Origin: a virus
Length of the DNA: 22,115 nucleotides
Strand: one strand, 5' to 3'
Virus genome (UHGV): UHGV-0080127
Shown: piece after piece, positions 13,150 to 20,705 of the stretch
Layout: each line of letters starts with the position of its first letter
Position numbering within the stretch: position 1 is the first letter of the stretch
The notes under the pieces: model-generated
What the model saw: only the letters and a program-made list of their open reading frames with translations
The model's database searches: none
Told to the model about the DNA's origin: nothing
Position numbers and translations under genes: made by a program

Positions 13150-13932
13150 TCATGCAGTGACTTTGGTCTGGTCAGGCGTAGAAAAATCTTCGAAAGATTT
13201 ATAAGTTTCAGTATCAAATATTGAAATACTCTCAACCTGATCCATTGGGATTACATGCCTAAAATGATTTAAGTTCAGTGGAGTTGAGTCTGCTGTAATA
13301 TTTTTACTAAGGTAAAGTTCATAGTAACGATGCTGCTCATGGTATCTGAGCGTATCTTTATCACGATAACCACTGATGTATGGTATGAGAGCCAGATGCT
13401 GAGTTTCCTGATGCTCCATCCGAGGAGCAGCTACGTAACCAATGTAAACTTTTCTGGATTTTAGCGTAACAAAGATGAGCTTACCTTCATCTATAGCCTG
13501 AACTAACAGTGACTCAATTCCATCTTGAGCTGCCATCTCGCGATATGCAGATTGACGAATCTCTTCGTTTTCTATTGCTCTTCGCGCATTGTTACCTTGG
13601 TCATAAGCAATAAACACCGCAAGCAGCATAGACAACACAAAGAACAATGGGTAAGACATTATCTTTACGTCTGTGAGCCATGAATAAAAGTCCACATGTA
13701 ACTTAGGCCAAAAATAACCAAAAAAATTGATAACTGAGCTTATAACTAGCAAGGTAACGAATGTAACAGCCATCAGAGTAAACCCCTGAATAGCAAACTT
13801 ACAACCATGCATAGCTACATAAAAATAGGAATTCCAACCATTACTTCTTGCTTGCCTGATGCGGGACTGGTAATGATTTTCGGTGTACCAGAACCCGCAA
13901 ACCAGGACGACCATGATAACTAAGGGTCCCAT
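13150..13932 (-). CDS. Hypothetical multi-pass membrane protein (260 aa) with a roughly 150-aa soluble C-terminal domain
   Basis: ATG at 13932 lies 3 nt after the upstream gene's TGA with AAGGA inside it (translational coupling); three hydrophobic stretches in the first ~110 aa; AT-rich codon usage unlike flanking phage genes. Confidence 0.6.
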   Translation of the reverse strand: MGPLVIMVVLVCGFWYTENHYQSRIRQARSNGWNSYFYVAMHGCKFAIQGFTLMAVTFVTLLVISSVINFFGYFWPKLHVDFYSWLTDVKIMSYPLFFVLSMLLAVFIAYDQGNNARRAIENEEIRQSAYREMAAQDGIESLLVQAIDEGKLIFVTLKSRKVYIGYVAAPRMEHQETQHLALIPYISGYRDKDTLRYHEQHRYYELYLSKNITADSTPLNLNHFRHVIPMDQVESISIFDTETYKSFEDFSTPDQTKVTA

Positions 13933-13935
13933 TCC

Positions 13936-14136
13936 TCATCCTTGTCGTTTTGCAGCCAATTCTTCCATTCTGGCACGCATTGATTCACGTACCTGCTTAT
14001 TGTTCATGTTTAAGGTCGCCGCACCATTAGCATCTGTGATAATTTTACTATTATCAGACTGTTGCACATCCTGACGGATGATATCCTGCATAATCTTACC
14101 TGGTGCAGAGAGAACTTTGCGCAGAAGTTCAGACAT
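13936..14136 (-). CDS. Hypothetical small soluble protein (66 aa), first gene of the two-gene operon
   Basis: ATG at 14136 with a strong AAGGAGG RBS (5-nt spacer); the ORF-track TTG start at 14211 is rejected because a TATAAT box lies inside that extension. Confidence 0.5.
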   Translation of the reverse strand: MSELLRKVLSAPGKIMQDIIRQDVQQSDNSKIITDANGAATLNMNNKQVRESMRARMEELAAKRQG

Positions 14137-14196
14137 ATTTTCCTCCTTATGCCTCAAACGCCACGGATTGTGGTGCATGGAAGCTGTCATCTTATG

Positions 14197-14202
14197 ATTA
14201 TA
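14197..14202 (-). promoter_or_regulatory. Candidate -10 box (TATAAT) of the promoter for the 13150-14136 operon
   Basis: Perfect TATAAT on the minus strand about 60 nt upstream of the 14136 ATG; the -35 region is weak and AT-rich. Confidence 0.35.
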
Positions 14203-14355
14203 GGACAACAAAAATACGAAACTATTCGAAGAGTGCTACGTATTAACCTATTTACATATCACCCTGCAACCAATTTATCCATAACTAACGCCTCGCACGG
14301 CTCGTTGCTCAACCTTGCGAACGGTAAAAACCAGTTTTATCGTCCGCAACGTTCC

Positions 14356-14589
14356 CTAATGTAACCAGCTGTCGTCTTCCCACACCTTCTGCATAATTTT
14401 CATCACTTGCTTCCTTTCTTCGTCCAGTTGCAGTCCGGTCAGTTCCACACCGTTAGAGCTACCTTTGCGGATACGAATTACCGTTTTGGGATACAGGGGG
14501 CGCAGATTGCGGTAAAGCTCGGATTCAAGGGCGTCCAGTGTAGACTGGCTAATCTTCTGCTCTTTATCGATCATTATTTCAATGCGCAT
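14356..14589 (-). CDS. dinI: DinI-family protein (about 77 aa)
   Basis: From the in-frame ATG at 14589 (AGGTGA RBS) the protein reads MRIEIMIDKEQKISQSTLDALESELYRNL...QKVWEDDSWLH, matching the DinI pattern (MRIEVTI...ETWESADDW). Confidence 0.75.
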   Translation of the reverse strand: MRIEIMIDKEQKISQSTLDALESELYRNLRPLYPKTVIRIRKGSSNGVELTGLQLDEERKQVMKIMQKVWEDDSWLH

Positions 14590-14599
14590 AAAAGTCACC

Positions 14600-14788
14600 T
14601 CAGCTGATGACATCCATTGAGCGGTTGTATTCGTGGGTTCTGATTTTTGCCATGAGTTCATCTGTTAGTTCAGAAACCCACTGCAAAGCCAGCCCCTTCT
14701 CTTCATCACTACACTCACTAGCCGCTACAAGCTTAAGAAAAAAATCAATGCGCTGGAGCTTCAAAGACTCCAAAAAATAGTCCTGCAT
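14600..14788 (-). CDS. Hypothetical 62-aa protein, first gene of the SOS operon (possible Tum-like antirepressor segment)
   Basis: ATG at 14788 with AGGAGGAAAG RBS, about 43 bp downstream of a LexA box; function inferred only from synteny with the 186 tum operon. Confidence 0.45.
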   Translation of the reverse strand: MQDYFLESLKLQRIDFFLKLVAASECSDEEKGLALQWVSELTDELMAKIRTHEYNRSMDVIS

Positions 14789-14828
14789 CTTTCCTCCTAT
14801 GACACCAAAGCAATACTGTATACATAAC

Positions 14829-14848
14829 CACTGTTTATATTTACAGTA
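14829..14848. promoter_or_regulatory. LexA (SOS) box CACTGTTTATATTTACAGTA overlapping a promoter for the minus-strand operon
   Basis: CTGT-N8-ACAG with an AT-rich spacer, matching the E. coli LexA consensus TACTGTATATATATACAGTA; minus-strand TTACAT and TATACT-like hexamers overlap it. Confidence 0.7.
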
Positions 14849-14940
14849 TATAATAATCTTACTGATGTAAAACGTTTTTTTACGTTCATCAGCCTGATAT
14901 GCCTGGTATTATTAAGAGCACGAATTGTTAACCCGCGTAA

Positions 14941-17355
14941 TTAATACAGGTTCCGCCACTTATCATCTTCCTTCAGACGCTGGTTCCGATAGAAGATACG
15001 CAGGCCTGCTCCTGACGGAATACTGCCACCGCGAAGGAGTAAATCGACCTCTTTCTCGCTGCCATCAAATCCTCTGGACTTCAGTTCATAGACGAGCTGC
15101 TGTCGTTGATGGTCTGTAATTCGCTGTTTGTAGTCTCTACGCCGTTTCGGTTTCACCAGGCGTAACCTTACAGCCAGTTCCCGGCGCTCTTTTTTGTTCA
15201 TACTGTGCAGAAAATCGTGCAACTCCTTGTCATCCATGCGGGTAATATCCGTTCTGGTGTCCCCATCAGCTGATTTATCTTTCTCCTGTTGGTTCAAATT
15301 TTCAGCAAGGGGACAGTTATTGCCACGAGTCCAAGGGGCGCAAGCGCCCTGGTCGGCTGCCGCCTCCTGAACGTCAACGGCCTTACGAACCATTTTCCAC
15401 TTCACCGCATGAGTGCAGATCTTGCCCTCTGCAATGGGTGACCAGATGCCATAAATACGAATACCGTGATCGCCATAAGCGGTTGGCTCTTCGTTGATTT
15501 CATAAGCGGTTCTGATGAGGTGATATTTACGGGGAACCAGTACGCCACCCTGCTTCATGATATAGGTGGCAAAACAACCAGCATCAGCAGCAGCCAGAAT
15601 GGCATCAAGGCGCGGGTTATCCAGTACCGGCGCACCTGCTTTTTTGTCACCCTGTTGCCTTGCCGCCTGACCAGCCAGCAATCGCAGTTCACGGTAAGCC
15701 TGACGCCCCGGAATGCCAAAGAAGCGGAATTGCTGAACACGATGCAGAGACGCCCAGGCATTAACGTATTCAGCGTTATCACGCAGGGATTTACCCGTTT
15801 CCTTGCTGATCTCCCCAGCCAGACCACGCCCGTCAATGTTCTTACTGATGTATTTCGCGATATAGCTTGTTGGCGTACCTTTGCGCGGGTTTATCAGCTC
15901 AGACTTAAAGCGTGGTCCCGTGTTATTGCCCAGCTCCTCGCGGTCTTCACGGATGGCAAACTTACGCAGTAATGCAGTGATGGCGCGGCGGTCTTTTTTA
16001 CGCATGAAACACATGAGATGCCAGTGCACAGTACCGTCATGATGCGGCTCAGCTACCCGCACGCCATACCAGCGCAACTCGGCTTTATGCATAGCCTTAC
16101 GAAATGCAGCAAACATGCCGACCAGATAATCGCTACTTTGTCTTACCGTCGCGTTTGTCCAGGTCGGGTTTGGTCTGCCGTTATTGAGCGTGGAATGGAA
16201 ACGCGACGGACAGGTGATAGTGTAGAAAACGGCACAGTCACTGCGCATTTCCGCGATAAGCTCCAGACCTTTAACACAGGCCATCATCTCATTGCGGCGA
16301 TGCGCCGGGTTGCTGCTGCTGGCGTTTACCACATCTTCCATATCCAGCGTGTCGCCGTCTTCGTTCACCAGTTCATGAGAACGAAAAAACTCCAGCGACT
16401 TACGGCGCTGCTCACGTTTATGCATCACGGCTTCATAGCTGACATAGGGGGATGCTTTTTTGCTGACCAGGCAGACAGCACGCAACTGCTCTTCCCGCCA
16501 TTCGCAACGCATCTTCCATAATTTCCGATACCACCAGTCGGCACACAACATACGCGCCAGCGAACCCGGGATGAGTTCATAGGGCACTGGTTTGCGGCGG
16601 TTTCTTTTCCGACGAAGTTTCTCAAACGCAGGCGGGATAACATCCAGACGCAGGGTTTCCGCTGCCACCTTTTCCCATGTCTTGCGGATTTCTTCTGGCT
16701 TAACGTCATCGGTGGCATACAAATCACCACAAGCGTCCTCAAGACACATGCTCATATGCGCTGCTACCAGGGTGGACAGGCGTTTCACCTGATCCTGGCT
16801 CATTTCAGGCAGGATCAGCAGACCCTCCAGCCCTTGATGGCTTGCCATAAAACGGAAAGAAACAGATAGCTGACTGTCACGTACACAATCCAGTCGCTCC
16901 AGACATGGCTTAATCGTCTCACGCAAATAGCGGGAATAAGCCTTTGGCCTGCCCAGGCTGCTGAAGTATTCAATACGTTGCATCAGCGGCTTGCTGATAT
17001 GGGAAGGCTGGGCGTTTACGTCCGCCAGAATGACCATGTCCGGATTAAAACGCTGCTGCTCATGCGCCAGCTTTGCCCGGCTAATGAGCTTATCCTGCTC
17101 CATTTCGCGCTGGACAGGATCACGGGATTCATTAAAGAAATAACGCTCCCAGACCTGCTCACTCAGTGCCTCGCGGCGCAGTTGTTCCTGCTCGTTATCG
17201 GCAGCGTACAGAGTGATCAGGTTTGAAAGTGCAGACTCCGGCGCAACTTCCGCCGGGTCCAGATAAGGGTTAATGGCCTTTTTCGAGCCGTTCCATGAAA
17301 ATGCTGCGGCGGCCTCGTTAAAGCCGCTGCAATTGTTCATATCGTCATGACTCAT
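14941..17355 (-). CDS. A: Replication initiation endonuclease gpA (rolling-circle type)
   Basis: About 804 aa from the ATG at 17355 (ORF-track start 17361 is GTG), which overlaps the dam stop (ATGA); contains an HUH-like motif ([13 protein letters not shown]); P2 gpA-like. Confidence 0.9.
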
Positions 17356-18209
17356 ACACACACTCCGTACACGGCAGAACTATCCACGCCACGCGAAGGA
17401 TCAAATCCCAACCAGCAGCTCGGCCCGGAAACAGCAATGATTTCTGTTGCAGATTTACCCTCGCCAGCTGACACGCCGATGCTGCGTTTTGCCTTGATAT
17501 AGTGGTGAGTAAAATTGCGATACAGCGAACGAATCAGGGATGTGTCATTGTTAGAAACAATGACCGGATGTCCTTCTGATGACCGATGTTCAAGAATGGA
17601 TGCCAGGTGATACTGGTCATCTTCAGTGAAACCATCAGTGTGATAGCCGGAAAACGTACCGTCATACGGCGGATCGCAATACACCACATCCCCCACCTGC
17701 AGCATCGCCAGCGTTTCATCAAAGCTCGCGCAGATAAACGTTGCCCGCTGGGCTTTCTCTGCAAATGCGCGAATTTCTTTTTCAGGGAAATACGGATTTT
17801 TATAATTACCGTAGGGAATGTTGAAATACCCGCTCTTGTTATAGCGACATAAACCACGGTAACCGTGACGATTGAGATACAGGAAATATATCGCCTTCAT
17901 GAAATCAGTAATTTCAGTTGAGTAATTAAACTCCTGTCTTATGTTGTAATAAGCCAGCTCACTGTTTGCTTCCTCAAATAAAACTTTGGCACGAGATATA
18001 AACGCTTCGCAATCAGCGGCAATCTTTTTATAGAGGTTGATTAAATCAGGATTAATATCCGCAACCAGATAGCTGGGGTAATCCGTCGCCATCATCACAG
18101 CACAAGAACCCGCGAAAGGTTCAACCAGTCGCGGGCCAGCAGGAAGGTATTTTTTCAGTTCGGACATAATGGCGGTTTTATTACCCGCCCATTTCAGGAT
18201 GGTGCTCAT
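17352..18209 (-). CDS. dam: DNA adenine methyltransferase (Dam family)
   Basis: From the ATG at 18209 the protein reads [11 protein letters not shown]..., with AdoMet-binding region and DPPY catalytic motif; translationally coupled to A. Confidence 0.85.
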
Positions 18210-20135: not shown

Positions 20136-20705
20136 ATGAATTTGGAGAAAGGCGGACGAGGCGCTATAGAGCGCATGGTAGAAGCTTATGGATTCAAGAC
20201 TCGACAGGCGTTGTGCGATCATTTAGGAATCTCTAAAAGTACACTCGCCACACGCTACATGCGTGACTCATTCCCAGCAGAATGGGTAATCCAGTGCGCC
20301 CTTGAAACAGGCAGCTCGCTTAATTGGCTCACAACCGGGCATGGTTCAAAGCAAACTTCAGGTAATACAAATACTATGGAAGTTGCTAAATATGTATTAT
20401 CTGATGGGGCCTTGTGTGAAGACGGTTTTTATATTTTCGATAGAGAATTTCTACCGTCGGCATTCAAGAATCTTTTTGTAATCACAGATAATAATTCTGA
20501 ATTTATTTGTGATAAGGAATTTGATGATATACGTGATGGTAAATGGGTAATAAGTATTGATGGCGAAATAACGATCCGTGACATTACTCGTTTACCCGGT
20601 GGAAGAATCTTCGTCGAGGGTGGAAACAGAGCCTTCGAGTGCAAGATAGAAGATGTTGAAATAATTGGGAAAATTATAAGTTTAACAATTAGGTACGTTA
20701 GGTAA
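20136..20705 (+). CDS. cI: CI immunity repressor (186 type)
   Basis: ATG at 20136 with GGAG RBS (ORF-track start 20130 is GTG); conserved block CALETGSSLNWLTTGHG resembles 186 CI (CALETGANLQWLLTGEG), as does the C-terminal ...ISIRDITRLPGG. Confidence 0.8.
   Translation: MNLEKGGRGAIERMVEAYGFKTRQALCDHLGISKSTLATRYMRDSFPAEWVIQCALETGSSLNWLTTGHGSKQTSGNTNTMEVAKYVLSDGALCEDGFYIFDREFLPSAFKNLFVITDNNSEFICDKEFDDIRDGKWVISIDGEITIRDITRLPGGRIFVEGGNRAFECKIEDVEIIGKIISLTIRYVR

Follow-up and report, generated by a model that had tools for sequence, protein, structure and literature searches.

Does the SOS-controlled locus of this prophage encode a single fused antirepressor, as phage 186 does with Tum, or two separate proteins, and which part would then act on the immunity repressor? 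The window, by which we mean the whole 22,115-nt stretch that was analysed (UHGV virus genome UHGV-0080127), is an E. coli prophage of the P2/186-like group (Peduoviridae). An initial annotation, made from the sequence letters and their open reading frames, had described a LexA box over a promoter that reads into a 62-aa ORF and then a DinI-like gene, and had likened this arrangement to the tum operon of 186. It had allowed for either two coupled genes or a frameshifted fusion. We find that the locus is very probably an SOS-induction operon of the "split tum" form, carried by a Fels-2/186-type P2-like E. coli prophage and encoding two proteins with no fusion between them. The 62-aa ORF is referred to below as tumA and the DinI-like gene as tumB. 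All features of the tum module lie on the minus strand, and they are listed here together with the neighboring genes considered in the text.

14941-17361 (minus): replication gene gpA, with its gene end at 14941
14861-14893 (minus): predicted RNA hairpin in the stretch from the gpA stop codon to the tum promoter, sharing bases with the -35 hexamer
14866-14871 (minus): -35 hexamer TTTACA of the tum promoter (p95 equivalent), 17 nt upstream of TACTGT
14843-14848 (minus): -10 hexamer TACTGT, forming the left half of the LexA box; the same -10 is annotated for p95 in the 186 record
14829-14848 (minus): LexA (SOS) box, the 20-mer TACTGTAAATATAAACAGTG, matching the LexA consensus at 17/20 positions
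14814-14833 (minus): conserved element CAGTGGTTATGTATACAGTA just 3′ of the LexA box, matching the LexA consensus at 15/20 positions
14600-14788 (minus): tumA, 62-aa antirepressor gene by homology to the N-terminal half of Tum, with a GGAGG Shine-Dalgarno sequence at 14793-14797
14590-14602 (minus): junction as read from the sequence, with the tumA stop TGA (14602-14600), a 10-nt spacer and the tumB Shine-Dalgarno sequence GAGGTG (14596-14601)
14356-14589 (minus): tumB (ATG at 14589, stop at 14356), 77-aa DinI-family protein, Pfam DinI E = 6.6e-23
13150-14211 (minus): variable cargo that follows tumB, with ORFs of 66/91 aa and 260 aa
about 20136-20705 (plus): cI, immunity repressor of the 186 type that TumA presumably targets, 32% identical to 186 CI (E = 9e-38)

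The tum promoter, its LexA box and their conservation

The intergenic region between gpA and tumA is 152 nt long and holds the tum promoter. The locus follows gene A in a Peduoviridae genome with a 186-type CI, as a Tum module does, and its synteny matches that of Fels-2, PSP3 and 186. Within this region the LexA core CTGTTTATATTTACAG at 14831-14846 is the sole exact CTGT-N8-ACAG in the 22-kb window. Shuffled sequences are expected to hold 0.31 such cores per window, and at least one was present in 29% of shuffles. By count, a single exact core in 22 kb is not significant, so the case for the box rests on its position and conservation.

Both point the same way. The 20-mer TACTGTAAATATAAACAGTG starts exactly at the -10 hexamer of a TTTACA-17 nt-TACTGT promoter, and the annotated p95 of 186 has the same layout, TTCACA-18-TACTGT with a LexA site that begins at the -10. 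Overlap between a LexA box and the -10 of the operon promoter is a defining trait of the 186-type Tum module, and the window has it. A generic sigma-70 promoter scan did not call the tum promoter because its -10 hexamer, TACTGT, is weak; the promoter was recognized through its analogy to the annotated p95 of 186 and through its conservation.

Among 70 distinct relatives, the locus varies least in the block from the -35 hexamer to the LexA box. Differences from the window amount to 0.9% in this block and 7.6% in the adjoining 5′ UTR, to 1.7% in tumA and 4.4% in tumB, and to 57% directly downstream of tumB, where homology among relatives stops at the tumB stop codon. In two diverged types, SopEPhi and ST437-OXA245phi4.1 (ST437phi4.1), the sequence of the 17-nt spacer has wholly diverged, while TTTACA, the 17-nt spacing, TACTGT and the exact LexA box are all kept. 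An exact LexA box stands at the equivalent place in 186, PSP3, SopEPhi, ST437phi4.1, ESSI2_ev015, ENT90, YenM_324 and YenM_201.16. The initial description of a LexA box overlapping a promoter is therefore confirmed: an exact CTGT-N8-ACAG sits on the TACTGT -10 and is conserved in relatives.

The locus is also common. Over the 1.9 kb around it, several E. coli chromosomes match at 99.9% identity and CFT073 at 98.5%, parts of this region match in 1126 of 5426 complete E. coli genomes, and more than 590 loci in IMG/VR encode a relative of the 62-aa ORF.

Two further elements flank the LexA box. In the conserved CAGTGGTTATGTATACAGTA element just 3′ of it, the right LexA half-site is good and the left one poor; the pattern ACAGTGGTTAT..TACAGT within this element persists in diverged relatives, with several internal positions variable. 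From its sequence, the element is a candidate for a second, weak LexA site, or it may belong to the 5′ UTR. On the upstream side, the hairpin at 14861-14893 has a folding energy of -12 kcal/mol (z = -3.7; 0/200 shuffles fold as well), and its sequence is almost invariant across Fels-2-type relatives. It may be a terminator or an insulator that stops transcription of the early operon from reading through. An Rfam search of positions 13900-15100 gave no match.

Two proteins related to the halves of 186 Tum

We turn to the products of the operon, which lie where the initial annotation had placed them, the 62-aa ORF leading and the DinI-like gene following. Membership of TumB in the DinI family is clear: it scores 81.3 bits against Pfam DinI (PF06183; cut-off 24.2), covering profile positions 1-63 of 63, and it matches E. 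coli DinI (PDB 1GHH, E = 2.7e-6) over its full length, including the region of the acidic C-terminal helix. Against NF007893, the NCBIfam equivalog model for host DinI, it reaches 42.7 bits with a cut-off of 111; because it falls below this cut-off, TumB is classed as a phage paralogue and not as host DinI. The alignment of TumB with residues 71-145 of 186 Tum is free of gaps, with 41% identity, and its first position coincides exactly with the internal GTG start annotated in 186 tum, whose product is described in the 186 record as "truncated Tum - modulates SOS induction". Judged by this alignment, TumB is the equivalent of the C-terminal half of 186 Tum and of its internal-start product. The window thus has a DinI-like moiety directly downstream of the 62-aa ORF, as expected of a Tum module, and this moiety is 78% identical to PSP3 TumB.

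The relation of TumA to Tum is more distant. BLASTP gave no alignment of TumA with either 186 Tum or PSP3 TumA, and searches of Pfam, NCBIfam, PADLOC and PDB sequences with TumA gave no match. Since direct similarity is too low for BLASTP, homology to Tum rests on profiles, intermediates and synteny. TumA matches phrog_698 (E = 3.6e-38), phrog_8554 (2.4e-8) and phrog_1993 (2e-3), and residues 1-70 of 186 Tum match the same three profiles in the same register (5.9e-6, 3.4e-12 and 1.5e-23, respectively). With hhalign, a profile built from 49 members of the TumA family places residues 4-43 against residues 4-43 of Tum at P = 1e-3; the probability is 22%, which comes from a shallow profile. A chain of intermediates connects the proteins, with identities of 51% between the window and ESSI2_ev015, 37% between ESSI2_ev015 and YenM_324, 45% between YenM_324 and 186, and 38% between 186 and PSP3. 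The motif shared by TumA and Tum is roughly [LI]x[EQ]R[IV][DE]hhh[RK]h......C....[KR].[IL]AL.[WL][IV][AS][ED][LI].

These comparisons indicate that TumA and the N-terminal half of 186 Tum are distantly homologous, and that the window has the antirepressor domain, homologous to Tum 1-70 and PSP3 TumA, that a Tum module should contain. An AlphaFold model of TumA is a two-helix hairpin (pLDDT 90), and a Foldseek search of the PDB with this model returned generic helical hairpins only (best E = 0.9). Alignment with 186 Tum, which the initial annotation had proposed as a check, gave a positive result for both proteins, at 41% identity for TumB and through profiles for TumA. The likeness to the 186 SOS module is borne out by the p95 layout and by the Tum homology of both products.

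The two parts are arranged differently in the two phages. In both, a LexA-boxed promoter (the LexA-repressed p95 in 186) precedes an N-terminal antirepressor part and then a DinI-like part, after gene A, and a 186-type CI is the target in 186 and the presumed target in the window. The 146-aa Tum of 186 is one polypeptide, with the DinI-like part also made from internal in-frame starts, whereas no single-frame Tum in this strict sense, a fused polypeptide of 146 aa, is present in the window. Identity between the two is about 21% in the N-terminal part and 41% in the DinI part.

We then considered whether the frames are nevertheless joined, by a programmed +1 frameshift or by a sequencing or mutational one, into a fusion of about 140 aa. 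Ahead of the tumB ATG, 25 codons of the DinI frame are free of stops, in +1 phase relative to tumA, and the summed length of TumA and TumB is near the 146 aa of 186 Tum, which is a real fusion. An open stretch of 25 codons, however, has a chance probability of about 0.37 at the stop-triplet frequency of the window. The phase between the genes is not conserved either. In the type represented by the window, Fels-2 and E. coli HS it is a 10-nt gap in +1; in SopEPhi and ST437phi4.1 it is an 11-nt gap in +2, with only 14 open codons; PSP3 has its genes in frame across one stop codon; and 186 is truly fused. Recoding is rejected because the phase varies in this way among relatives; a prfB-like +1 frameshift should keep its phase, and its downstream frame should have no start of its own. 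In the window a conserved Shine-Dalgarno sequence and ATG serve tumB: the start GAGGTG-N6-ATG is strong, and 77 of the 83 junctions that were read have the identical sequence TGAGGTGACTTTTATG. Reading the junction by eye, we saw no prfB-like slippery or stimulatory motif at AGC-UGA-G.

The protein relatives agree with this, as TumA was fused to a DinI domain in 0 of the 120 best ones, and the longer versions of TumA (84-109 aa) are gene-caller N-terminal extensions that run through the LexA box. A sequencing error is countered by the presence of the split arrangement in hundreds of loci. Taken together, the chance-level open stretch, the unconserved phase, the conserved tumB start and the unfused relatives lead us to reject a recoded or frameshifted fusion, which we regard as extremely improbable.

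The tumA and tumB genes do not overlap, the tumB ATG following the 10-nt spacer in +1 phase. The initial annotation was right that the DinI frame is open upstream, over the 72 nt that it gave, and the first ATG in that stretch is at 14661; the gene overlap it drew from this did not hold, the stretch being accidental. Of the two arrangements it had offered, the coupled genes stand and the fusion falls, since relatives keep separate ORFs in varying phase. Its search for a fused ORF in relatives came out negative, with none among those 120 database relatives. It had also stated that consistently separate ORFs in relatives, with a first ORF unlike Tum, would count against the module; the ORFs are indeed consistently separate, and the first one resembles the Tum N-terminus.

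A hairpin across the tumA stop and the tumB Shine-Dalgarno sequence was also considered as an attenuator. It was flagged as terminator-like by the terminator scan, and was rejected because it folds no better than shuffles (z = -1.1) and is not conserved in the SopEPhi type.

The antirepressor and the likely course of induction

Split tum loci have been described before, and the records and publications on them bear directly on the division of labor between the two proteins. Fels-2 and PSP3 tum are split in two halves according to Lemire et al. 2011 (PMC3121763), which for Fels-2 cites Bunny, Liu and Roth 2002. In Fels-2 (STM2728/STM2726.1) the likeness to the window is very close, with TumA (STM2728) identical at 61/62 residues, TumB at 100%, and the LexA box, the promoter, the 10-nt junction and the position after gpA all shared; it differs in CI, which is 41% identical overall with a similar N-terminal domain, and in its downstream cargo. 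PSP3 likewise has two genes behind a LexA-boxed promoter, but its TumA is only about 22% identical, and its genes are in frame across a single stop where the window has 10 nt and a +1 phase. The PSP3 record describes tumA as "similar to 5' end 186 tum; UV induction of prophage" and tumB as "similar to dinI and 3' end of 186 tum", and Lemire et al. 2011 (PMC3121763) ascribe the PSP3 antirepressor activity to the upstream gene.

The most direct evidence comes from prophage DuoHS of E. coli HS. The "Phollow" paper (PMC12055606) describes an in-frame deletion of "tum" (ECHS_RS04495), and reports that Δtum, like lexA(Ind-), abolishes mitomycin-C-induced lysis. ECHS_RS04495 is the 62-aa ORF, and the DinI-like ECHS_RS04500 lies 10 nt downstream. 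DuoHS and the window share 61/62 TumA residues, 77/77 TumB residues, 97% of CI, the same -35/-10/LexA-box block and the same 10-nt junction; they differ by one TumA substitution (T51S), by small changes in the 5′ UTR and by other downstream cargo. Going by these identities, the module in the window is for practical purposes the one already tested in E. coli HS. The module is thus already known, in architecture from Fels-2 and PSP3 and in function from the Δtum mutant of E. coli HS, and LexA control and the requirement of TumA for induction have been shown in close relatives.

Two other assignments of function were weighed against an upstream antirepressor. If the DinI-like protein were the inducer, for example by boosting RecA activity on CI, the 62-aa ORF would be an unrelated accessory gene; it is true that the recognized Pfam domain lies in the DinI-like gene only, and that the 62-aa ORF matches nothing in Pfam, NCBIfam or the PDB. 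Yet deletion of the 62-aa ORF alone abolished induction in E. coli HS, this ORF is homologous to the Tum N-terminus, the 186 record calls DinI-only tum products modulators and not the CI inhibitor, and phages with tumA only exist. We therefore give this assignment almost no credence.

Joint action is somewhat easier to entertain, though still improbable. Here TumA and TumB would act only together, as the non-covalent equivalent of full-length 186 Tum, with both required. The two parts are fused in 186, the genes lie side by side and are conserved together in over 80 loci with hardly any variation at their junction, and the published Δtum may have left the two functions incompletely separated, as it could in principle also affect tumB translation and so leave some room for a TumB contribution to induction. 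Against this, four Peduoviridae lineages carry a LexA-boxed tumA-like gene and lack a DinI gene in the 1.5 kb examined to each side of it, so that TumA is apparently able to stand alone. The attribution of the PSP3 activity to the upstream gene alone argues in the same direction, as do non-polar dinI deletions in Gifsy prophages, which had no significant effect on induction according to Lemire et al. 2011 (PMC3121763). Finally, the start-stop fusion in Δtum keeps the tumB Shine-Dalgarno sequence and ATG, yet induction is lost, which shows that TumB alone is insufficient.

The question of which protein is the antirepressor, if any, which the initial annotation had left unresolved, is effectively answered by homology and published genetics in favor of the upstream 62-aa ORF, TumA. 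The course of induction with a split TumA and TumB can then be outlined. In a lysogen, LexA bound to the box over the -10 would keep the operon off, to go by the sequence and the annotated p95 of 186. DNA damage would bring about RecA-stimulated cleavage of LexA and derepress the promoter, and one mRNA would give rise to two separate proteins, TumA and TumB. By analogy with the N-terminal half of 186 Tum, TumA is predicted to form a non-covalent complex with the 186-type CI and so keep this repressor from binding DNA, and the lytic promoter would be released once CI is blocked. TumB, made from its own Shine-Dalgarno sequence and ATG, would probably tune the SOS signal via RecA filaments, as is annotated for the DinI-like internal-start products of 186 tum. 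For 186 Tum, the one case in which action on CI is known, the record notes that Tum "inhibits CI DNA binding", and Tum is described as reversibly binding CI and preventing operator binding (Shearwin et al. 1998, as cited in PMC3121763).

The tum locus links host DNA damage to the induction of prophages that belong to a very common P2-like family. Its TumA is annotated as "hypothetical protein" or mis-called with an N-terminal extension through the LexA box. As TumA has no Pfam or NCBIfam model and is mislabelled, annotation misses the gene that decides prophage induction, and the main value of our analysis lies in annotating a widespread "hypothetical protein" as TumA.

Downstream cargo and the CI repressors adjoining TumA

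The terminator scan found no canonical terminator after tumB. Transcription from the SOS promoter may run on into the cargo ORFs at 13150-14211, by analogy with orf97 in 186. These ORFs had no Pfam or PADLOC match, and they show no similarity to 186 orf97 or Fels-2 STM2726; orf97, which lies downstream of tum in 186, is absent from the window. The comparison with Orf97 that the initial annotation had suggested thus came out negative, the downstream ORFs being unrelated to it.

One aspect of the locus may be new, and it is the only such lead: a single TumA allele that serves many CI alleles. In IMG/VR, TumA is 100% identical in every one of the best 80 of more than 590 loci. A co-variation between TumA and CI over its whole length was considered and rejected, as identical TumA occurs alongside many CI types. 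Tentatively, and with somewhat less than even confidence, we suggest from these sequences that TumA of the Fels-2 type may have broad specificity as an antirepressor and recognize a conserved surface on the N-terminal, DNA-binding domain of CI, for which the SKST block described below is a candidate. The pairing pattern could alternatively reflect mosaic recombination around a conserved replication-tum block. If TumA does have broad specificity, a single TumA made under SOS induction could bring about cross-induction of heteroimmune P2-like prophages or satellites that share its cell, and the target of Tum would be the N-terminal domain of CI and not its C-terminal domain.

The CI repressors that adjoin the identical TumA fall into at least 17 clusters that are mutually less than 80% identical. 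Their N-terminal HTH domains have a median identity of 72%, and their C-terminal (oligomerization) domains a median of 29%. For the C-terminal domains, the 29% median among clusters compares with 27% to 186 CI. The N-terminal domains contain a near-invariant block, SKST-A-R--RD-FP--W-IQCALETG, and 186 CI, which is paired with a different TumA type, differs in this block.

Tum architectures in the Peduoviridae and naming of TumA

LexA-boxed tumA-like genes were found in ESSI2_ev015, ENT90, YenM_324 and YenM_201.16 (loci L091, L092, L093 and L094), with no DinI-like gene within 1.5 kb on either side of the tumA-like gene. Given these loci, the family has three architectures: a fused tum as in 186, a split tumA-tumB pair as in PSP3, Fels-2 and the window, and tumA alone. 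In Escherichia phage 500465-1 (L009), the module is a copy in decay, with internal compensating frameshifts in tumA, a 1-nt deletion in tumB, and a replication gene gpA that has been broken up by IS elements.

4483-5013 of L009: decaying tum module

The start of TumA is often called too far upstream, generating an ORF that reads across the promoter and LexA box (L003, 3072-3362, and among the 120 best protein relatives of TumA, P0001-P0120). These overextended calls are 84-109 aa in length, and some are named 'levan regulatory domain protein'. The 62-aa TumA is a 'hypothetical protein' in RefSeq, and neither Pfam nor NCBIfam has a model for it.

Elements flanking the tum promoter

14861-14893, minus strand: RNA-fold hairpin that follows the gpA stop codon, lies ahead of the tum promoter and overlaps its -35
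14814-14833, minus strand: element CAGTGGTTATGTATACAGTA, directly 3′ of the LexA box, matching the LexA consensus at 15 of 20 positions

The hairpin has a predicted dG of -12 kcal/mol (z = -3.7), and equally good folds were obtained in 0 of 200 shuffles. It may insulate tum against read-through from the early operon; similar palindromes precede LexA boxes in Gifsy prophages (Lemire et al., PMC3121763). On the other side of the LexA box, the right half-site of CAGTGGTTATGTATACAGTA is a good LexA match, and the pattern ACAGTGGTTAT..TACAGT is kept in promoters of the diverged split-tum SopEPhi and ST437phi4.1 types. This element may act as a second, weak LexA site, or it may instead be a conserved feature of the 5′ UTR.

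Cargo slot downstream of tumB

13150-14211, minus strand: cargo slot of variable content, preceding the portal gene

Homology among relatives ends exactly at the tumB stop codon, which defines the region beyond it as a variable slot. In the window, the slot is occupied by a 66/91-aa ORF and a 260-aa ORF, the latter with an N-terminus that appears hydrophobic by eye; in relatives, the same slot carries TIR-domain, Ymh-domain or other genes. Both window ORFs are unrelated to 186 orf97 and gave no matches to Pfam or PADLOC. Since no canonical terminator was found in the window between the SOS operon and the slot, the cargo may be under SOS induction.

CI repressors paired with TumA

20136-20705, plus strand: cI, immunity repressor gene

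Among the best 80 of >590 IMG/VR loci (L011-L090), in which cI lies ~5.3-6.5 kb upstream of tumA, one identical 62-aa TumA is accompanied by 17 CI clusters that are mutually <80% identical. Median identity among these CIs is 72% in the N-terminal HTH domain but 29% in the C-terminal domain. This pairing and the uneven conservation suggest one of two explanations: the N-terminal domain of CI is the target of TumA, or a recombination breakpoint lies within cI. About ten loci (including L057, L074, L066, L062, L015, L027 and L086, with cI upstream of tumA) encode a ~310-aa CI in which two tandem N-terminal HTH domains precede a single C-terminal domain.
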